From positions 326,011-390,010 of the forward strand of contig JAQBRE010000002.1 of NCBI GenBank assembly GCA_028286605.1: a stretch of DNA of 64,000 bases. The letters are read 5' to 3'. This stretch comes from Parcubacteria group bacterium. GTDB taxonomy: Bacteria > Patescibacteriota > Minisyncoccia > Phycocordibacterales > Phycocordibacteraceae. This document shows, piece by piece, positions 26,160 to 51,117 of this stretch. The stretch's first letter is position 1, and every line of letters begins with the position of its first letter. A program made the translations under genes and the position numbers. The notes under the pieces were generated by a model, which saw only the letters and a program-made list of their open reading frames with translations, was not told the origin of the DNA and did no database searches.

Positions 26160-26513
26160 GGACCGATCCAGACGACCGCTCCAAGATGCCGGAAGGCCTC
26201 AGGGGAGGAAAGTCCGAACACAGGCCGGCGGTTTCCGCCGGCAGAAGGGTAGCGGGTAACGCCCGTCCGCAGTAATGCGCGAGGTGCGAGCAGAGACGCT
26301 TTAGCGGAAACGCGAGAGCATCTGATTTCGGTCAGATGAATCCACTTGGTGACTTGTGGGGTGAAACGGCTAAATCCTTACTTCTGTGCAAGGCCGTGCC
26401 GGTAGTCTTTCGGGACATGCCGGAGCGCCGCTCGAGCCGGCTGGTAACAGCCGGCCCAGATAGATGGTCGTCCTTGCGCAAGCAGGACAGAATTCGGCTT
26501 ATCGGATCGGTTC
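26160..26513 (+). ncRNA. rnpB: RNase P RNA (bacterial type A)
   Basis: P4 halves GAGGAAAGTCCGAACAC and ACAGAATTCGGCTTATC, GGTAACGCC, GGTGAAA, GCTGGTAACAG. The 10 bp P1 pairs 26160-26169 with 26504-26513. Confidence 0.85.
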
Positions 26514-26524
26514 AAAAACATGAA

Positions 26525-33248: not shown

Positions 33249-33263
33249 CTGACGCGAAAAAGT

Positions 33264-33298
33264 AAAAACAGCCCCGACCTCCGGTCGGGGCTGTTTTT
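33264..33298 (+). terminator. Rho-independent terminator after the glutaredoxin gene
   Basis: 16 bp stem aaaaacagccccgacc / ggtcggggctgttttt. Confidence 0.65.
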
Positions 33299-33317
33299 AT
33301 GCTACGCTCGCAGTATC

Positions 33318-33389
33318 GTCCTCGTAGTTCAATGGATAGAACTCCGCACTCCTAACGCGGGAACCCAAGTTCGACTCTTGGCGAGGACA
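33318..33389 (+). tRNA. tRNA-Arg (anticodon CCT). CCA not encoded.
   Basis: Acceptor GTCCTCG/CGAGGAC, D-stem GTTC/GAAC, anticodon loop CTCCTAA, T-arm CCAAG-TTCGACT-CTTGG. There is one A-C mismatch at 31-39. Confidence 0.7.
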
Positions 33390-33435
33390 CCTGGAAGAGA
33401 AAAGTACCGATTTTCCCTGTGGTACGATATTTACA

Positions 33436-35295
33436 ATGGCTGATGAGAAGCTCCTAGAGCAGATACTTAAAGAGCGCGGTGCGGGAAAATCTGAAGAAGC
33501 CCTCCATGAGGAACTGAAGAAAGATGGGTGGCCTGAAGCGGACATTTACGGCGCATTTGCGGTGGCGAAGTTGCGCAGCAACCCCATGACCGCATCACGT
33601 CTTGCGCCCCCTGCGGTAGCGCCGCGCCGATCTAAGGGCAATCTGGTTTTCCAGATACTCATCGTTATCGTCCTGCTGGTTTCGGCACCGGCAGTATTCG
33701 GCTTCGTTACGGGTACGGTGCTTCCTGCGATCACCGCTCAGGCGAACGGTACCGCGACCAGCACGAGCCTCGCTACGCTCGGCCAATCCATCTTCGGTAT
33801 CGTGCCGCTCATTCCGGTAAAAGGTTCAGGTACGGGCTCGATCTTTTCGGCTCCTGCATCGAAATCAAGCGGATCGAGCGCGGCGGTATCGCACTCAACC
33901 ATAACTACGCAACCGACCGCGGCCACTCCTGCGCCTAACGCGGGGGCACCGATAACGACACAGACGCAAACCACTGTGCCGGTCGTAACAACGACGCAGA
34001 CCCCATTTTCTGTCCCTGATCAAGCGCCTGTCGTTACAGTTCCAAATCCTGTTGTTCCTGTTACTCCAGTCGTCACACCGCCCGTTGTACCGGTTGTACC
34101 AGTAACTCCTGTAACCCCGGTCGTACCCGTGGTGCCGGTCGTTCCTCCTGTCGCATCGCTCGCAACGGCGACAGATACGCCAAGCTTGCTTAAGGCATTG
34201 AAGGCGGCAAAGCCCGGCGACACTATTACGCTCGCTTCGAATACCTATTCAGGGCTTGGCACTATTGCAAACCTGAATTTCTCTTCACCCGTAACTGTTA
34301 CGTCGTACGATACGAGCCACAAGGCGATTCTTACGAATTTCAGCATGATGCGCGTTAACGGTCTAAGCTTCACCAACCTCGAATTCAGCAACCAAACTCC
34401 TACAGCATTTACGGTGAACACCTCGAGCTCGCAGAATATACGATTTGATTCCGATTATATCCACGGCTCGCTGGATGGTAATTCTGATGATGATGGCGGA
34501 GGTCTCGGCTTCCTTGATACCTCAAACGTAACGGTTTCGAATTCAACTCTTGAACAGCTTCGCCAGGGTATCAGCAACGGCGCTAATGTTACGCCAAGCG
34601 TTTCGAACATAACGATCACGGGAAATACTATAAAGGGAATGGAGAAGAGCGGTATGGTATTTGCAGGCGCAAGTAATGTTACGGTTACAGGAAACTCAAT
34701 AAGCGATATTGAGGTAGTACCTCCCGATCACCCGGATGGCATGCAGTTCTTCACGACCGGTACGACCGTTGCTGCGCATGACATTACCGTTGCGAATAAT
34801 GTGATCGTTAAAGGAAAGGGGCAGGCGGCGCAGGGCATTTTCTTCCGGGATCAGGTTGGAACGCTGCCATATCAGAATGTGCACATAGACAACAACCTTA
34901 TTATTGATACGGGATATGGCGGCGTGTATGCGGAAGGAGTCGGCTCAGGTGAATTGAGTGGTAACTTCCTTACCTCTGAACCAGGCTCAACAAACAATAC
35001 CTTCTTCTTGGTTCAGAACGGAGGTACTATTGCCGCAACTAATAACACTGCAACGGCAATCAGCTTTGATAATGTCACGAATCTTACGCAGTCGGGTAAC
35101 GCGACCACTACTCCGGTAACAGACCAAGGCTTGCAGGCGATGCGCGACTGGTCACAGAGCCATCCCGCAAGCGCAGCGCAGCTCGCGCCTTTCATCGGAG
35201 CGCTCAGCATCGCTGATTCCCATAGCATGCTTGCTTCGGCCGAAGCAGCCCTCGCCTCTGCACTGCACTATCTTTTGGGTCTGTTGCGATTGTAA
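33436..35295 (+). CDS. Single-pass membrane protein with a ~45 aa cytoplasmic N-domain, TM, Pro/Thr/Val-rich linker and extracellular right-handed parallel beta-helix domain (paralog of 44384..46483)
   Basis: The N-domain EKLLEQILKERGAGKSEEALHEELKKDGWPEADIYGAFAVAK aligns with the N-terminus of the 44384..46483 protein. TM NLVFQILIVIVLLVSAPAVFGF. Linker PVVPVTPVVTPPVVPVVP. PbH1-like repeats (ITITGNTI, VTVTGNSI, ITVANNVI). Confidence 0.6.
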   Translation: MADEKLLEQILKERGAGKSEEALHEELKKDGWPEADIYGAFAVAKLRSNPMTASRLAPPAVAPRRSKGNLVFQILIVIVLLVSAPAVFGFVTGTVLPAITAQANGTATSTSLATLGQSIFGIVPLIPVKGSGTGSIFSAPASKSSGSSAAVSHSTITTQPTAATPAPNAGAPITTQTQTTVPVVTTTQTPFSVPDQAPVVTVPNPVVPVTPVVTPPVVPVVPVTPVTPVVPVVPVVPPVASLATATDTPSLLKALKAAKPGDTITLASNTYSGLGTIANLNFSSPVTVTSYDTSHKAILTNFSMMRVNGLSFTNLEFSNQTPTAFTVNTSSSQNIRFDSDYIHGSLDGNSDDDGGGLGFLDTSNVTVSNSTLEQLRQGISNGANVTPSVSNITITGNTIKGMEKSGMVFAGASNVTVTGNSISDIEVVPPDHPDGMQFFTTGTTVAAHDITVANNVIVKGKGQAAQGIFFRDQVGTLPYQNVHIDNNLIIDTGYGGVYAEGVGSGELSGNFLTSEPGSTNNTFFLVQNGGTIAATNNTATAISFDNVTNLTQSGNATTTPVTDQGLQAMRDWSQSHPASAAQLAPFIGALSIADSHSMLASAEAALASALHYLLGLLRL

Positions 35296-35339
35296 GAATC
35301 GTAAAAGCGGCCCGTCTGCATATAATATAATTAAGCGAT

Positions 35340-35849
35340 ATGAATAAAACGAACTGGATTATCGCGATACTCGTAGGTATTGCGTTCGTGTGCACACTTA
35401 TTACGTATGCGGAAAGCCTTCATACTATGCCGGAAGCGCCGGCCGCTCCTGTGATTTCAACGACGACACAAACGAAACCGGTATCTACAACCCACACGCA
35501 GCCATCTTCCGGAGGAATTCTTATCCACACATTTGGCGATGTAACGCTTTCAGTAGGACAGACGGCAAAATTCAGCGATGTAACTATCGTGCCAGTAAGT
35601 ATCGATCAAGACAGTCGTTGCCCGCTCGGAACACTCTGTACGGTAGGATTCCAGGCAGGAACCGTAGAAGTTTCTACTCGTATTACTTCAGCTTCAGGTA
35701 CCCTCATACAAACGCTCGCACTAGGGAAGTCATTTACCATAGGTCATGATGTTATTACCCTTACGGGAGTAGAACCTGTAAAGCGTCGAGAGACGACCAT
35801 TCCTCAATCAAGCTACCAGCTGACCTTCAGTGTGGAACCGACTTCATAG
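35340..35849 (+). CDS. Hypothetical lipoprotein/secreted protein (169 aa)
   Basis: Signal peptide with Cys (IAFVCTLITYA), a Thr-rich linker, and a ~100 aa beta-rich domain with 2 Cys. Confidence 0.4.
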   Translation: MNKTNWIIAILVGIAFVCTLITYAESLHTMPEAPAAPVISTTTQTKPVSTTHTQPSSGGILIHTFGDVTLSVGQTAKFSDVTIVPVSIDQDSRCPLGTLCTVGFQAGTVEVSTRITSASGTLIQTLALGKSFTIGHDVITLTGVEPVKRRETTIPQSSYQLTFSVEPTS

Positions 35850-35917
35850 CTCTTGCGTGAAAAACCGAGTGGTATACTTAGGACATACCAAACTAGAAGG
35901 ATATATTCCCGCACACC

Positions 35918-36346
35918 ATGAAAACGATGATTCACCGCACCAGCCGCGCATTCTATGATCCTTCGCTCGGCATCTTCCTTATCCGCCTGATGGTTGGTCT
36001 TGTCTTTCTTTCGCATGGATGGGGCAAGGTAGTAGCGCTTTCGGCAACCATGATGATGTTCGTGCATCTTGGCATGTGGCCCGTCGTCGGCGTCTTCATC
36101 GGATGGCTCGAAGTGGTCGGCGGTCTCGCGCTTGTCCTTGGCGTCGCGACTCGTTTCTTCGGCATCCTGTTCGCGATCGAGATGCTCGTCGCAGCTATCC
36201 TTATCGGCGTTTCTCACGGCTTCGGCGCGGTTGAGTTCGAACTCCTCCTCGCCGTCTGTTCGCTCGGCATCGTCTTCATCGGTTCAGGCAAGTACTCTAT
36301 ATACAAGATGGAGCGTCACCTGAATCCAGACGTCGCAGCCGCATAA
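35918..36346 (+). CDS. DoxX family membrane protein
   Basis: LIRLMVGLVFLSHGWGKV motif and 4 TM. 142 aa. Confidence 0.75.
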   Translation: MKTMIHRTSRAFYDPSLGIFLIRLMVGLVFLSHGWGKVVALSATMMMFVHLGMWPVVGVFIGWLEVVGGLALVLGVATRFFGILFAIEMLVAAILIGVSHGFGAVEFELLLAVCSLGIVFIGSGKYSIYKMERHLNPDVAAA

Positions 36347-36355
36347 TATTCGTTC

Positions 36356-36688
36356 ATGCCCGAAGGGAGCGAAAGCGAATCAGAGATATTCGAACGGTTA
36401 GACGTATTGTCTGATCTTATCGAAGAGAATATAAAGCTCGCGCACGATACGAACCGTATCGTGCGCGACATGCGACGTACCGGGCGCATCGCGTTCTGGT
36501 TCAAAGTGATCCTGTGGATCATCGTGCTCGGTCTGCCGCTCCTGTTCATCGGGCCGATCATGCAGTACTTCACCGCGCTCACCGGGTACTCGATTCCGGC
36601 CGGTACGAGCGCCTTCGGCATACCTTCCAGCACCCAGATACAGCAGGCCGTAACGGAGTTCAAGGCGAAGAATACGGCTACGCCGTAA
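36356..36688 (+). CDS. Hypothetical small membrane protein (110 aa)
   Basis: Acidic N-terminus, then a single TM (FWFKVILWIIVLGLPLLFIGPI). Confidence 0.35.
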   Translation: MPEGSESESEIFERLDVLSDLIEENIKLAHDTNRIVRDMRRTGRIAFWFKVILWIIVLGLPLLFIGPIMQYFTALTGYSIPAGTSAFGIPSSTQIQQAVTEFKAKNTATP

Positions 36689-36728
36689 AGGTGAAATACG
36701 GCCCCTGCTATGGTAGGATAGCCGTATT

Positions 36729-36801
36729 GCTTGGGTAGCTCAGTTGGTAGAGCGCTTCCCTGAAGAGGAAGATGTCCCCGGTTCGAATCCGGGCCCAAGC
36801 A
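36729..36801 (+). tRNA. tRNA-Phe (anticodon GAA). CCA not encoded.
   Basis: GCTTGGG-TA-GCTC-AGTTGGTA-GAGC-G-CTTCC-CTGAAGA-GGAAG-ATGTC-CCCGG-TTCGAAT-CCGGG-CCCAAGC-A. Confidence 0.9.
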
Positions 36802-36805
36802 CCTG

Positions 36806-37906: not shown

Positions 37907-37922
37907 GCGCGATAGATACGTA

Positions 37923-38016
37923 AAAAGCACTCTAAAAAGGGGCTGCGGAGCGTGACGACGCGAGCCGGAGCAAATTCCCAGCAGGGAATTATGCGTACCC
38001 TTTTTAGAGTGCTTTT
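37923..38016. repeat. Copy 1 of a ~95 nt conserved structured element. 19 bp perfect outer stem, enclosing a 56 nt core with two internal hairpins. Candidate structured RNA or bidirectional terminator.
   Basis: AAAAGCACTCTAAAAAGGG-[gctgcggagcgtgacgacgcgagccggagcaaattcccagcagggaattatgcgta]-CCCTTTTTAGAGTGCTTTT. The copy at 49740..49835 has the same 56 nt core with 5 substitutions and a different outer stem. Confidence 0.6.
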
Positions 38017-38023
38017 GAAGTGT

Positions 38024-38563
38024 CTAGGTAGACTTCACCTTCAGCTTCGTCTGACGGCTCTTATCAAGCTTCGGCATAACGATGGTGAGCAAACCATCCT
38101 TAGCACCCGCTGATGCATTGTCCACATCAACTTCCTGTGGAAGAAGGATGGTACGGGAGAATGAACCCCAGAAGAGTTCGCGTATAAAATAATCCTCGTC
38201 GTTCACGGCATCACGCTCTTCGCGCGAACCTTCAATAACAACCATATCGCGGCTAAGCGAAAGGCTTATCTCATCGGGACGAACGCCTGCGATGAAAGTG
38301 CGAATGACGATCTCGCCTGCGGTCTGATAGACGTCTACAGGAAGCTCGCCATCGCTCTGCTTTTCCTCAAGCGCGTTGATCATGGTCGCATGCGCTGGAG
38401 CTGGAGCGACGGAAGGAATAGAACCCATTGAACCGGTAGGAGAATTAGCCGACATTTTGCGGATGGGCTGCTGCTGCGGAACGAAATCGTCTTCGAACGC
38501 ATCGTAGTCATCCGAGATCGGAACCGATCCGGAGAGCCGTTCGAAGAAAGATCGTTTTTTCAT
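38024..38563 (-). CDS. Hsp20/alpha-crystallin family small heat-shock protein
   Basis: Alpha-crystallin domain with DGLLTIVMPK (the G-x-L motif). 179 aa. Confidence 0.85.
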   Translation of the reverse strand: MKKRSFFERLSGSVPISDDYDAFEDDFVPQQQPIRKMSANSPTGSMGSIPSVAPAPAHATMINALEEKQSDGELPVDVYQTAGEIVIRTFIAGVRPDEISLSLSRDMVVIEGSREERDAVNDEDYFIRELFWGSFSRTILLPQEVDVDNASAGAKDGLLTIVMPKLDKSRQTKLKVKST

Positions 38564-44317: not shown

Positions 44318-44327
44318 TTAATCCTTT

Positions 44328-44364
44328 AAAAAACACGGCCTTGCTATGCAAGGCCGTGTTTTTT
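44328..44364. terminator. Bidirectional terminator between convergent genes
   Basis: aaaaaacacggccttgc-tatg-caaggccgtgtttttt. Confidence 0.65.
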
Positions 44365-44383
44365 AATACCCACCCACAAATAT

Positions 44384-46483
44384 CTAGAATAGATTCGCCA
44401 GGAACGTTCGTAACCAAGAAGCGAATACGCCAACCGAGGCAAGAAGGGAAGTGTGCGATACGACAGGAGCAATAGAGACCTGGCCCTGATATTCATAGGC
44501 GCCACGATCATAGGTTCCATCTGCGCCGCGAGTAACGCCGTATGCATCAACATTGTACGGTGAGCCGAGACTCACGCCTGGATTGAGTGGCGCACTCAGA
44601 TGGTAATCGCTCGTGAATACGTCAGTGCCGCTGCGAACGAATGGATCGGTACTCGAACCAATCTGAGCATTTGTATCATTCAGAGCTGCACCGGGGTTTT
44701 CGTCCACTGGAGTAGGAACACCGCTGGTTCGAACGTTTTTTGAGAAGTAATCGTTCGCGTGCGTTACGCCAAAGAAGCCGAATCCGTTACTTTGGTTGTT
44801 GTACCAGATATTGTTATAGACCAGATTGTTCGTGCCTTGTTCTATATGAAGCGCACCCACTGACGAGTTCTTCATATTCACCACGTCGTTGTTATAGAAC
44901 TGAAGATTATCCATTTCCTGCAAATCATTTCCCGTATGGTAGTAGTAGATGGTACTGACGCTGTCAGAGAAGATGTTTCCATAGATGCTCCAGTTCGTAG
45001 ATATTCCAAGATTAACTCCCGCGAATACGCCCGTCCCATTAATATCGTTCCAAATATTATTACGGAACGTCCAATTATCATTGGTTCCCTGTGAGGAGAC
45101 GCCTTCAGCATGATAGTTGGGGCAGATTGGATCGGTGTAGCCGGTGCTCTTCACGCCATCAATGGCATTATCTTCAATAAGAACGTTACTCCAATTGTTG
45201 AGATAGAATGCAGCACCGAACAAATTGTGCAGATAGTTGTCGCGGAAGGTGAAACCAGTTCCACCTGTCGTTCCGTTTATGCCGCGCATCGGGAACGTTA
45301 TGTCACCAGCATACGCGTTAACGTGCTCAATCGTGAGATTAGAGACCGTGTTAGTAAGCTGGAAGAGCATATGGAAGCCATTGCAGACTGGATTAGTCTG
45401 CGTAACGGTAATGCCGAAGCCGCTCGTCCAGTTTCCTGGGCCTCCCCCGGTTGAACCGTCAAGCACGTAGTACGGGGTCGTGTAGTTGAACATCGGGAAC
45501 GTGGCCGTTCCGGTTCCATAGGAAGAAATCCAGCCCGTATCAGTTCCGTGATTGCTCTGGGTGGCTTTCTTAACGGTTATTAGTGTACTGCCAGAGGCCG
45601 CATCGCTGAAGGTGTGGATGGCATATTCTGTTCCGGAGCCGCAGAGGTAATAGGTATCACCGCGCACCAATGATTTAGGAAGGTCGAGATAGGCGTTGGT
45701 CCAGTCAGCACCGGTATGTGTGCCTGCCGTTGCGTCAGGACACACATATACGAACGTAGGATCCGTAACCGTTGGAGTTACTGGCACTACCGGTAGTACT
45801 ACGGGAGGCTTATTGGATATCGGAGTAGGCGTAGGGTCCGGCGTCGGGGTAGGTGTGGGAGTAGGCGCTGGCGGAGTAACGGTGGTCGTTTGAGTATTCG
45901 TATCGGATGTACCGGTAACTGAAGAAACAGTATTCGTAACGGTCGAAATAATCGTGCCAAGCACGGATGTTGATACTGGCGTCGATGCAGGAGCCGGAGA
46001 CGGCGCAGAAGATACGGCTGGTGCAGGCGCGCCCGTGTTTGAGGAAATACGCGGAACGCTTGGCGACACATATGTGGATGGTGAAACTGCTGAATGTGCA
46101 GCAACAGGAATTTGAGGAGCAATACCCAAGAGGGAATAATCCTTGAGGCTGTCGCTTGCCTTGACGGGTTGTCCCTTGGTAGCAGGGATGATGACTCGCG
46201 TCATGAGTCCGTATGCTCCGGGTGCTGAAACGATGACAACCGCGATAAGTACTAACTGAAGGAAAATGCTCGTCTTGCTGTGCGCAGGAGCCCTTTGAAC
46301 CGAGGAATATTGGGTCTGTGAACGCAACGCGAAAGGTCCTGTCTGGATTTTCAGGATAGCAAATGCGCCATTTACGTCTTCCGCACTCGACCCTTTAGAA
46401 GTGAGGTCTTTAAGAATGTCTTCTTCAGAATGCCCTGAGGCCTGTTTCTGACGTATGGTGTCGAGAAGTTCCTGGCTAGCCAT
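44384..46483 (-). CDS. Single-pass membrane protein with a conserved cytoplasmic N-domain, Pro/Thr-rich linker and extracellular right-handed beta-helix domain (paralog of 33436..35295)
   Basis: The N-terminus QELLDTIRQKQASGHSEEDILKDLTSKGSSAEDVNGAFAILK matches the first paralog. TM IFLQLVLIAVVIVSAPGAYGL. Linker PTPTPTPTPDPTPTP. Repetitive N/G/T-rich beta-helix rungs (NNIWND, YGNIFSD, YNNDVVN). Confidence 0.6.
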   Translation of the reverse strand: MASQELLDTIRQKQASGHSEEDILKDLTSKGSSAEDVNGAFAILKIQTGPFALRSQTQYSSVQRAPAHSKTSIFLQLVLIAVVIVSAPGAYGLMTRVIIPATKGQPVKASDSLKDYSLLGIAPQIPVAAHSAVSPSTYVSPSVPRISSNTGAPAPAVSSAPSPAPASTPVSTSVLGTIISTVTNTVSSVTGTSDTNTQTTTVTPPAPTPTPTPTPDPTPTPISNKPPVVLPVVPVTPTVTDPTFVYVCPDATAGTHTGADWTNAYLDLPKSLVRGDTYYLCGSGTEYAIHTFSDAASGSTLITVKKATQSNHGTDTGWISSYGTGTATFPMFNYTTPYYVLDGSTGGGPGNWTSGFGITVTQTNPVCNGFHMLFQLTNTVSNLTIEHVNAYAGDITFPMRGINGTTGGTGFTFRDNYLHNLFGAAFYLNNWSNVLIEDNAIDGVKSTGYTDPICPNYHAEGVSSQGTNDNWTFRNNIWNDINGTGVFAGVNLGISTNWSIYGNIFSDSVSTIYYYHTGNDLQEMDNLQFYNNDVVNMKNSSVGALHIEQGTNNLVYNNIWYNNQSNGFGFFGVTHANDYFSKNVRTSGVPTPVDENPGAALNDTNAQIGSSTDPFVRSGTDVFTSDYHLSAPLNPGVSLGSPYNVDAYGVTRGADGTYDRGAYEYQGQVSIAPVVSHTSLLASVGVFASWLRTFLANLF

Positions 46484-46529
46484 GAAATTTCGTTTCCGGA
46501 TTCATGAGGAAATAATAGCACTAGTTTTG

Positions 46530-46601
46530 TGACTCCACGGGGAATCGAACCCCGATTTCAGCCGTGAAAGGGCCGCGTCCTAACCGTTAGACGATGGAGC
46601 C
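46530..46601 (-). tRNA. tRNA-Glu (anticodon TTC). CCA not encoded.
   Basis: Reverse complement GGCTCCA-TC-GTCT-AACGGTTAG-GAC..., anticodon loop CTTTCAC, T-arm CGGGG-TTCGATT-CCCCG, acceptor TGGAGTC. Confidence 0.85.
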
Positions 46602-49714: not shown

Positions 49715-49739
49715 TTTTAAATTATATCAGGTACAGCAA

Positions 49740-49835
49740 AAAACACTCCGATAAAAGGGGCTGCGGAGCGCGACGGCGCGAGCCGGAGCAATTTTCCAGC
49801 AGGAAAATATGCGTACCCTTTTATCGGAGTGTTTT
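49740..49835. repeat. Copy 2 of the ~95 nt conserved structured element, located between the ftsZ stop and the trxB start
   Basis: AAAACACTCCGATAAAAGGG-[gctgcggagcgcgacggcgcgagccggagcaattttccagcaggaaaatatgcgta]-CCCTTTTATCGGAGTGTTTT. It has a 20 bp perfect outer stem. The core is identical to copy 1 except for compensatory changes. Confidence 0.6.
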
Positions 49836-49842
49836 GAGCTGT

Positions 49843-51117
49843 CTATTTCTTGTGGCGACGAAGGAAGCTTGGAATCGCGCCCCAGGTGTCGTCCTCTTCT
49901 TCGACGATAGGCGGCGTGATGGCCTGTGCGGTTTCGCGAGGCTTCGGCATTGCCGTTACGATAGGCTCTTCGCGTTCGCGGCGAGGAGGAAGGATAGGTC
50001 CCTCGTCTTCTGGCATTGGCATAGATGCTGGCGCTTCTTCGCGCGGTGCAGGGCGGCCGAGCACGTCATTGAAGATCTTTCCGCGGCTTTCTTCCTGCTC
50101 CTTCGCAGGCATCGTGAAGAGCGAGCGTTCGCCACCTGTGTATGACGCGGATCCATCCTGTTCAGGGAAACCGGTCGCGATGACGATGATGCGGAGCTGG
50201 CCCTTCTTAAGCTTCTCATCGCGCATGATACCGAAGATGACCTTCGCGCTCTTATCAACGGATTCGCCGATAACCTTCGCTGCTTCCTGTACTTCAAGGA
50301 TGCCGAGGTCGTCTGAACCTGCGACCACAAAGAGGATGCCACGAGCGCCGGTGATGGAAACATCGAGGAGCGGGGAATTAACGGCTGCTGCAGCGGCGTC
50401 CTTGGCACGGTTGTCGCCGTCTGCGATACCGATACCCATGAGCGCTGGGCCGGCACCTTCCATGATCGCCTTGATGTCGTTGAAGTCCGTGTTGATTTCA
50501 CCAGGAGTGGTGATGATATCGGAAACACCTTCCACTGCCTGACGAAGGATTTCATCGCAGAGCGCGAATGCATTCTTCGCGGAGGTCTGTGCTTCTACGA
50601 TAGAGAGAAGCTTGTCGTTAGGAATAACGAGATATGCGTCTACTTCCTTCTTAAGAGAAGCAAGACCGACTTCAGCGATCTCGGTGCGCTGTGCGCCTTC
50701 GAAGGTGAACGGCTTGGTGACGACGGCAACGGTGAGCGCGCCGAGCTCCTTCGCGATCTTCGCGACGACGCCTGCTGCGCCTGTTCCTGTTCCGCCACCC
50801 ATGCCGCAGGTGATGAAGACCATGTCTGAACCCTGAAGCGCTTCCTGAATCTCCTGACGTGTCTCTTCAGCGGCACGACGGCCGAGCTCTGGGTTCATTC
50901 CAGCACCGAGGCCCTTCGTGAGGTTCTTGCCGATGTGGATCTTACGCTTCGCGAGGCTGCGGTGCAGATCTTGCGCGTCCGTATTGATAGCGATGAACTC
51001 CACGCCCTTCACCTTGGAGTTGATCATGTGATTAACAGCATTGCCGCCAGAACCTCCACAGCCGACGACGCGGATGCGTGCGAACGTTTCGATTTCAGGG
51101 GTTACGCGCTTGGACAT
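49843..51117 (-). CDS. ftsZ: Cell division GTPase FtsZ
   Basis: GGGTGTGAAGVVAKIAKE tubulin signature. 424 aa with a C-terminal tail. Confidence 0.97.
   Translation of the reverse strand: MSKRVTPEIETFARIRVVGCGGSGGNAVNHMINSKVKGVEFIAINTDAQDLHRSLAKRKIHIGKNLTKGLGAGMNPELGRRAAEETRQEIQEALQGSDMVFITCGMGGGTGTGAAGVVAKIAKELGALTVAVVTKPFTFEGAQRTEIAEVGLASLKKEVDAYLVIPNDKLLSIVEAQTSAKNAFALCDEILRQAVEGVSDIITTPGEINTDFNDIKAIMEGAGPALMGIGIADGDNRAKDAAAAAVNSPLLDVSITGARGILFVVAGSDDLGILEVQEAAKVIGESVDKSAKVIFGIMRDEKLKKGQLRIIVIATGFPEQDGSASYTGGERSLFTMPAKEQEESRGKIFNDVLGRPAPREEAPASMPMPEDEGPILPPRREREEPIVTAMPKPRETAQAITPPIVEEEDDTWGAIPSFLRRHKK

Follow-up and report, generated by a model that had tools for sequence, protein, structure and literature searches.

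What is encoded by the gene that begins just past tRNA-Arg(CCT) in a 64-kb stretch of Parcubacteria DNA (contig JAQBRE010000002.1; hereafter the window, 64,000 nucleotides (nt) in all), and how is it related to a second gene of the same window? The first gene (33436..35295, + strand, stop codon included; NCBI JWM39_442) encodes a scaffolded beta-helix surface protein of 619 amino acids (aa). The second (44384..46483, - strand, stop codon included; NCBI JWM39_453, from the same metagenome-assembled genome (MAG)) encodes a 699-aa paralog with a common scaffold and an unrelated beta-helix head. We regard it as probable, though well short of certain, that both belong to a Parcubacteria-specific family of single-pass membrane proteins with a cytoplasmic N-terminus (N-in), in which a constant scaffold would carry an exchangeable head, and that the head of the 619-aa protein is active on exopolysaccharide (EPS). 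The scaffold would consist of a ~48-residue three-helix cytoplasmic domain, a transmembrane (TM) helix with a conserved juxtamembrane segment, a disordered Pro/Thr/Val/Ser stalk and a tail made up of an SLLASV motif and an amphipathic helix. The head would be a right-handed beta-helix of ~350-440 residues, equal from end to end to stand-alone proteins found elsewhere, and the stalk would hold it away from the membrane.

A common N-terminal module and unrelated beta-helix heads

The product of the 619-aa open reading frame (ORF) is identical to an NCBI entry, hypothetical protein JWM39_442 [Parcubacteria group bacterium], from a MAG and a 532-kb contig. All four parts assigned to it in the original prediction, which was made from the DNA letters (an N-domain, a TM helix, a Pro/Val/Thr linker and a beta-helix), are present. 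Of the two paralogs only this one was modelled, using AlphaFold2 and a 65-sequence alignment (mean predicted local distance difference test score (pLDDT) 79.9). The protein begins with a cytoplasmic three-helix N-domain (residues 1-48, 33436..33579, this and the following parts all on the + strand; pLDDT 88-98), with helices at residues 4-15, 20-29 and 34-48. A single TM helix follows at residues ~70-92 (33643..33711), and residues 70-88, with a Kyte-Doolittle value of 2.79, are the sole TM-grade hydrophobic segment free of proline. Because four lysine or arginine residues lie on the N-terminal side of this helix, which RRSK precedes, and none on the C-terminal side, the protein is predicted to be N-in. 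The extracytoplasmic juxtamembrane segment (residues 93-130, 33712..33825, ending in GIVPLIPV) is conserved and homologous to that of the 699-aa paralog, and in the model the stretch from the TM helix into this segment is helical (residues 70-118). Next comes a disordered stalk of Ser, Thr, Ala and Pro (residues 131-240, 33826..34155) with PVVPVTPVV-type repeats at its end; pLDDT is <50 over residues ~111-204, leading into the PVVPVTPVV-type segment. The DNA encoding the stalk contains no tandem repeats, and a slippage-prone linker was rejected on these grounds.

The head (residues 241-595, 34156..35220) is a right-handed parallel beta-helix with two C-terminal cap helices. The protein matches Pfam PF13229 (Beta_helix) at 58.4 bits (E=8.7e-16), above the gathering threshold of 25.9 bits. 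Residues 241-580 of the model are short stacked strands with pLDDT >92, and a terminal helix spans residues 577-618. Foldseek matched the head at probability 1.00 to beta-helix lyases and tailspikes, and hydrolases were also matched. The fold named in the original prediction was thus confirmed by profile, model and structural comparison.

The two paralogs had been described as sharing an N-domain of ~45 aa. The N-domains are indeed homologous, but the extent of the similarity is greater and runs through the TM helix (with SAPxxxG at its end) and the juxtamembrane segment (...GI.P.IPV) to about residue 130. This N-module occupies residues 1-130 of the 699-aa paralog (46094..46483, - strand), where it again comprises N-domain, TM helix and juxtamembrane segment. 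Using BLASTP with compositional adjustment, residues 1-128 of the 619-aa protein aligned with residues 1-127 of the 699-aa protein at 33% identity over 131 positions (E=5e-19). The homology is therefore real, and since the similarity is not compositional, it cannot be put down to low complexity. A phmmer search against all six-frame ORFs of the window found the N-module in these two proteins only (E=1.6e-16), and the first 48 residues of the 619-aa protein alone matched the paralog at E ~1e-4.

The heads behave differently. They had been thought to have diverged from one another, but show no detectable similarity (BLASTP E=1.0), and closer relatives of each are found outside the family. The 619-aa head is 54-56% identical to stand-alone proteins of 343-389 aa, and stand-alone homologs of 340-396 aa have ends that match the head boundaries. 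Its identity to RTX-fused proteins from Sphingomonas and Phenylobacterium is 29-41%. The head of the 699-aa paralog (residues ~241-677, 44453..45763, - strand, ending ...DGTYDRGAYEY) belongs to a different beta-helix family; it is 42-49% identical to stand-alone proteins of ~450-530 aa (46-49% for the closest), one of them from a Polyangiaceae MAG, and these too correspond to the head over their whole length. Its identity to some Patescibacteria proteins is ~33%. Against PF13229 the 699-aa protein reaches 24.3 bits, just under the 25.9-bit threshold, and many of its homologs carry PF13229. Its residues 633-666, with the ...DRGAYEY end, match NCBIfam NF041518 (choice-of-anchor Q) at 15.7 bits (E=0.014), under the 25-bit cut-off.

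The same pattern was seen across the family. When 1.84 billion cluster representatives were searched exhaustively in HMMER with a profile of the N-module, 338 proteins matched at E<=1e-3; this search was used for the count, a word-index homology search with the same profile being near-empty. In nearly all of the 338 the match begins at residue 1, and the host proteins range from 85 to 1418 aa. Exactly one TM segment was found in 121 of the 148 representatives listed, and in 130 of these 148 the TM helix starts at residues 40-140 (median 73). The N-domain follows a family-wide pattern (MADxxLL...G..EE.I...L..KGW..EDINGALA). Named representatives are Parcubacteria, with the exception of P0062 (Candidatus Nanoarchaeia), and the N-module was absent from the viral contigs searched. 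For 19 subfamily representatives, N-modules were similar in 150 of 171 pairs at E<1e-5, whereas heads were similar in 51 of the same 171 pairs and fell into at least five classes. In this comparison the 619-aa and 699-aa proteins, from one genome, match over 131 residues of the N-module (E=2e-21) and not in the heads (E=1.0). The 619-aa protein and its head ortholog P0002 have heads that are 68% identical and N-modules that match only weakly, over 48 residues (E=3e-7). For P0053 and P0056, again encoded in one genome, N-module identity is 45% and the heads match over no more than 71 aa (E=4e-10).

Two further members, P0054 (L085 2347-6181) and P0056 (L081 2635-7992), occupy the same locus, beside an orthologous histidine kinase and response regulator (kinases 54% identical). 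Their heads match only marginally (E=1e-3, 24% identity over 157 aa) and belong to different classes at the strict threshold, which suggests that a head was replaced in place. Since heads are unalike and each has much closer relatives outside the family, they appear to have been exchanged rather than to have diverged in place. The mosaic pattern argues for head exchange on a resident scaffold or, as the other way of producing it, for homogenisation of the N-module within each genome. Taken with the predicted topology and stalk, these comparisons support the originally proposed family, in which N-in, single-pass proteins share a conserved cytoplasmic module and display a beta-helix on a stalk.

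The N-domain has no relative in Pfam, NCBIfam or the PDB beyond weak matches to DUF494, RecX_HTH1 and UBA-type three-helix domains, most of which fall in multi-copy relatives. A likeness to SHOCT or T2SSE_N had been raised and was rejected, as neither family was matched in Pfam even at E<=5. The domain is a candidate targeting or organising module. In P0062 and P0076 this three-helix domain (~40 residues) occurs as 4-5 tandem cytoplasmic copies beside TM segments, five of them in P0062. As P0062 is from Nanoarchaeia, the three-helix domain is common to bacteria of the candidate phyla radiation (CPR) and at least one DPANN archaeon.

The proteins are also alike at the other end, in their last 22-24 residues. 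The tail of the 619-aa protein (HSMLASAEAALASALHYLLGLLRL; residues 596-619, 35221..35292, + strand; helix pLDDT 81-86) combines an S-[LM]-L-A-S-[AV] motif with an amphipathic helix extending from there to the C-terminus, and it resembles those of the 699-aa paralog (TSLLASVGVFASWLRTFLANLF; residues 678-699, 44387..44452, - strand) and the ortholog P0002 (TSMLASVEAAFSHIKEYLLSLWR). S-L-L-A-S-V and a C-terminal helix of 15-30 residues close 17 subfamily representatives. A tail profile built leaving out the 619-aa, 699-aa and P0002 proteins matched the 699-aa protein at its exact C-terminus (E=0.005). Since the tails fall below the TM helices in hydrophobicity (mean Kyte-Doolittle 0.1-1.9 versus 2.0-2.6) and above them in hydrophobic moment (0.13-0.53 versus 0.04-0.13), they look amphipathic rather than membrane-spanning, and a second TM helix was rejected as an identity for the tail, which is too polar and amphipathic. 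In known C-terminal sorting signals, a signature motif comes before a helix as hydrophobic as a TM segment and a cluster of basic residues; none of those looked for (LPXTG-sortase, PEP-CTERM, PGF-CTERM, GlyGly-CTERM and the C-terminal sorting domain (CTD) of the type IX secretion system (T9SS)) was found in the tails, which have S-L-L-A-S-V instead. In homologs of the 699-aa head the position of the tail is taken by other C-terminal modules, such as a T9SS CTD in P0203. To judge from where it lies, the tail may serve in anchoring or sorting.

Relatives and possible activity of the 619-aa head

The relatives of the 619-aa head point to Alphaproteobacteria and to EPS. Scanning one genome for each of 185,579 species, a collection that does not include the source MAG, detected 140 relatives. 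The best 80 of these all belong to Alphaproteobacteria or to unclassified Pseudomonadota MAGs, with many copies in Phenylobacterium and others in Sphingomonadales, Bradyrhizobium and further groups. Patescibacteria are absent from these 80, and plasmid matches of the head were likewise all from Alphaproteobacteria. In a neighbour-joining tree of 126 sequences and 318 columns, the Parcubacteria pair nests in short metagenomic proteins, and these nest in Phenylobacterium/Alphaproteobacteria clades. From this distribution we infer transfer of the head into Parcubacteria. EPS biosynthesis clusters surrounded the head relative at all three of the loci whose gene content was examined, with genes for Wzy/Wzx, glycosyltransferases, a pyruvyl transferase, WelK, Wzz and export.

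Relatives were also detected on viral contigs. Six IMG/VR loci (L089-L094) encode proteins of 365-418 aa that are 27-37% identical to the head. At one of these (L090 2354-6017) an endolysin gene is located ~2 kb from the relative, with a DNA methyltransferase gene close by, an arrangement consistent with a phage depolymerase or tailspike. The head gave no tblastn match in 50,697 deposited phage genomes (INPHARED), and its match to the PHROG family phrog_2234 (tail spike protein) was weak (E=3.6e-5). Among predicted viral structures, tailspikes and depolymerases were its best structural matches.

A 12-sequence head alignment revealed six invariant polar residues (H343, D353, H432, D434, Q437 and D472) in the motifs HGSLDG...ND, DHPDxIQFFTTGT and QGIFFRD; H432 and D434 are nearly invariant even in the 65-sequence alignment, which includes other head classes. 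The nearest structures are the PL31 and PL6 alginate lyases, RbmB, GH87, GH110, AlgE epimerases, the adhesin PfbA and tailspikes. With the solved enzymes of this group (the PL31 lyase 6kfn, PL6, RbmB, GH87, GH110 and AlgE4/AlgE6) the head has in common the fold, an N-terminal cap motif (L..AL..A.pGD.I.L..G.Y) and an asparagine ladder.

There is a precedent for such proteins in Rhizobium leguminosarum, where PlyA and PlyB are secreted EPS glycanases that act on EPS at the cell surface, and the same work links glycanases to polygalacturonase, pectate-lyase and PL6-type domains (PMC9298526). The RTX-fused alphaproteobacterial proteins are direct sequence relatives of the 619-aa head (29-41%), while PlyA/PlyB were compared with it by description rather than by sequence. 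PlyA/PlyB and the RTX-fused proteins are released by type I secretion and have C-terminal RTX or cadherin-like modules, whereas the 619-aa head has an N-terminal TM anchor and stalk and a different tail.

On the basis of the EPS contexts, the invariant residues, the nearest structures and the PlyA/PlyB precedent, we read the 619-aa head as a probable enzyme. Its family is found mainly in Alphaproteobacteria, where members are encoded in EPS clusters or carry RTX repeats as a fusion for type I secretion. At the Parcubacteria cell surface the head would bind and cleave, or otherwise modify, an acidic exopolysaccharide. To judge from homology and gene context, the protein is most likely a surface-tethered polysaccharide lyase or hydrolase, with both activity and substrate inferred. 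The broader role suggested originally for the family, glycan-active or attachment, is plausible.

Several observations weigh against this reading. The structural matches are of a generic kind, at 9-17% identity and E 1e-6 to 1e-4, and PfbA, which is not an enzyme, is among them. A single-sequence search gave no match, and a head-family profile searched against all PDB sequences gave partial matches (E 7e-5 to 3e-3), to 6kfn over residues 3-61 and to AlgE4 over residues 132-223. No full-length significant match to PL6, PL9, PL31 or AlgE/AlgG was obtained, and no CAZy-type family could be assigned. The AlgE catalytic motif is YG(F/I)DPH(D/E); the DPH(D/E) element is not visible in the head sequence, which has an invariant D-H-P-D-x-I-Q instead. 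As for the origin of the head, the neighbour-joining tree was built with no bootstrap, the closest stand-alone relatives (P0003-P0008) carry no taxon label, one of them being on a contig of 63% GC, and the GC content at third codon positions (GC3) of the head (0.53) is lower than that of housekeeping genes (~0.60). Because GC3 is lower rather than higher, transfer would have been old or from a different donor, and the composition gives no sign of recent transfer. Lastly, the statistics for tail conservation are weak in the 619-aa protein: the tail profile misses the 619-aa tail and reaches P0002 only at E=0.41, so that conservation of the tail across the 619-aa, 699-aa and P0002 proteins and the subfamily has moderate support.

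Two other functions must be weighed. The heads could be non-catalytic adhesins that only bind a glycan or protein of a partner cell, for attachment and not degradation. PfbA is among the best sequence-profile as well as structural matches, CPR bacteria are expected to be epibionts with attachment proteins (PMC4508563; PMC13059738), and a long stalk suits reach. However, the His, Asp and Gln residues do not vary even between distant phyla, relatives are encoded in EPS clusters and, on viral contigs, close to lysis genes, settings in which enzymes are usual, and most of the structural neighbours are enzymes. We therefore consider pure adhesion unlikely, though a chance worth keeping in view. Slightly less probable again, in our estimation, is a housekeeping envelope enzyme that acts on a surface glycan or wall polymer made by the cell itself, comparable to PlyA/B, AlgL and PslG in their producers, and that is unconnected with other organisms. 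The alphaproteobacterial relatives are encoded beside the biosynthesis genes of the polymer that they presumably trim, and the Parcubacteria family genes are located among housekeeping genes. Yet no EPS biosynthesis genes are found beside either gene within the window, and the type of head varies at the same locus in related genomes, which is unexpected for a conserved self-polymer.

Genomic setting of the two genes

Both tRNA genes that had been named as bounding the 619-aa gene, tRNA-Arg(CCT) (33318..33391, + strand) and tRNA-Phe(GAA) (36729..36803, + strand), were located at the predicted positions by ARAGORN and Rfam. The 619-aa gene starts 44 nt past tRNA-Arg (gap 33392-33435), and the 699-aa gene starts 45 nt past tRNA-Glu(TTC) (46529..46601, - strand; gap 46484-46528), each on the same strand as its tRNA. 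Elsewhere in the family, a tRNA 3' end opens the contig encoding P0002, ~70 nt before that gene (L001 1-113), and P0056 has a divergent tRNA-Asn 171 nt upstream (L081 5757-6000), while no tRNA lies close to five other members. The gap between tRNA-Arg and the 619-aa gene showed no sigma-70-like promoter; given this and a terminator-like hairpin (33263-33299) that precedes the tRNA, co-transcription with tRNA-Arg is possible. The tRNA adjacency of the paralogs could reflect co-transcription or an insertion hotspot. P0053 (annotated as a putative glucanase, Parcubacteria bacterium C7867-007; L079 3459-6593) and a small gene for a pilin-like (N_methyl) protein are placed between fusA (EF-G) and tuf (EF-Tu), a site within an otherwise conserved ribosomal-protein gene region.

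The original prediction had treated the tRNA-bounded segment as a possible integration unit. Beyond the position of both paralogs 44-45 nt downstream of a same-strand tRNA, the tRNA 3' end before P0002 and the tRNA-Asn upstream of P0056, nothing marks segment 33318-36803 as a horizontally acquired island integrated at a tRNA gene: the 64 kb contain no att-like direct repeat and no repeat of the tRNA 3' end, inspection of the ORF list (rather than a search with a protein-family library) showed no evident integrase-sized ORF between the two tRNAs, GC content is 0.50-0.55 against 0.53 for the window, the P0002 ortholog is flanked by rpsT, ruvA and a Mur ligase gene with the other genes of the segment absent there, and the five members mentioned above lack a nearby tRNA. 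With no att repeat, evident integrase, composition shift or conserved cargo, we regard an island as highly improbable. It had also been asked whether family members are targets of diversity-generating retroelements (DGRs), which are recognized by a template repeat (TR) and variable repeat (VR) of ~100 nt that differ at A positions, near the 3' end of the gene. No TR/VR-like repeat, and no repeat of >=35 nt involving either gene, is present within the 64 kb, and the DGR target was rejected.

Between the two tRNAs are four ORFs, of 619, 169, 142 and 110 aa. The 142-aa ORF (35918..36346) is the DoxX gene that had been predicted (PF07681, E=5e-14), and the 110-aa ORF is at 36356..36688. The 169-aa ORF (35340..35849) had been called a lipoprotein and has a hydrophobic segment at its N-terminus. 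A lipobox, which closes the signal peptide, reads [LVI][ASTVI][GAS]C; here the cysteine has an A-F-V-C context (..GIAFVC-T), with A at -3 and V at -1. The canonical lipobox is thus absent and the lipoprotein identity was rejected; the ORF has no Pfam or NCBIfam match.

We also noted several structured elements in the window. Two perfect, GC-rich hairpins of 17-19 bp with A/T runs on either side, at 33263-33299 (after a glutaredoxin-like gene) and 44326-44366 (between the convergent 206-aa and 699-aa genes), resemble bidirectional terminators. Bacterial class A RNase P RNA is encoded at 26160-26517 on the + strand (118 bits, E=1.7e-35). A structured intergenic element occurs in two copies (37913-38026 and 49733-49843) with a 70-nt core that is 91% identical; its long outer stem keeps its pairing despite sequence change and encloses two small conserved hairpins. 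The copies have minimum free energies of -64 and -66 kcal/mol (z ~-9 on the + strand) and match no Rfam family at the gathering threshold; the element could be a novel small RNA, a repetitive extragenic palindromic (REP)-like repeat or a bidirectional terminator.

A proposed lineage-specific scaffold for variable heads

Polysaccharide-active proteins with a beta-helix are well known, as are surface proteins displayed on stalks, and CPR genomes encode polysaccharide lyases, glycoside hydrolases and putative adhesins (PMC10031880; PMC4508563; PMC13059738). The C-terminal tail, the wide distribution of the N-module and the alphaproteobacterial and viral-contig affinity of the head all go beyond what the original prediction described. 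In the literature searched, we found no description of the scaffold (three-helix domain, TM/juxtamembrane module and SLLASV tail), and no account of a scaffold with interchangeable heads or of the affinity of this head for alphaproteobacterial and viral-contig proteins. Each of the known systems resembles the 619-aa protein in part. Solved beta-helix enzymes differ from the head in sequence (9-17% identity, partial profile matches at E ~1e-4, and DHPDxIQ in place of the AlgE DPH(D/E)). Phage tailspikes and EPS depolymerases likewise have beta-helix heads that are swapped between conserved attachment scaffolds, but the scaffold of the 619-aa protein is a cellular membrane anchor and not a virion adaptor. 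PfbA of Streptococcus pneumoniae and Gram-positive wall-anchored proteins similarly have a surface beta-helix and a C-terminal element after the functional domain; PfbA, however, loses its signal peptide by cleavage and bears the LPXTG signal for sortase, whereas the Parcubacteria proteins have an uncleaved N-domain with a TM anchor and a tail lacking LPXTG, PEP, PGF or GG motifs. A more speculative extension, which we rate as a long shot, is that the N-module, stalk and SLLASV tail constitute an undescribed Parcubacteria display-and-anchoring system into which depolymerase heads captured from other bacteria or from their phages are plugged by recombination.

The ~48-residue cytoplasmic N-domain starts hundreds of otherwise unrelated single-pass proteins and deserves a family definition. 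How uncultivated, genome-reduced Parcubacteria interact with other cells is largely unknown, and the scaffold family offers a concrete handle on this: a lineage-specific scaffold whose variable heads have relatives among EPS-processing enzymes, both in identifiable bacteria and on a few viral contigs. Should the heads match the EPS or capsule of the organisms to which Parcubacteria attach, as tailspikes match their hosts, head phylogeny could predict Parcubacteria partners; the 619-aa head would then point to a Phenylobacterium- or Sphingomonad-like alphaproteobacterium. If the heads are active depolymerases, their substrates could reveal partners or food sources. The affinity of the head hints at how uncultured soil Parcubacteria may handle the slime layers of other microbes.

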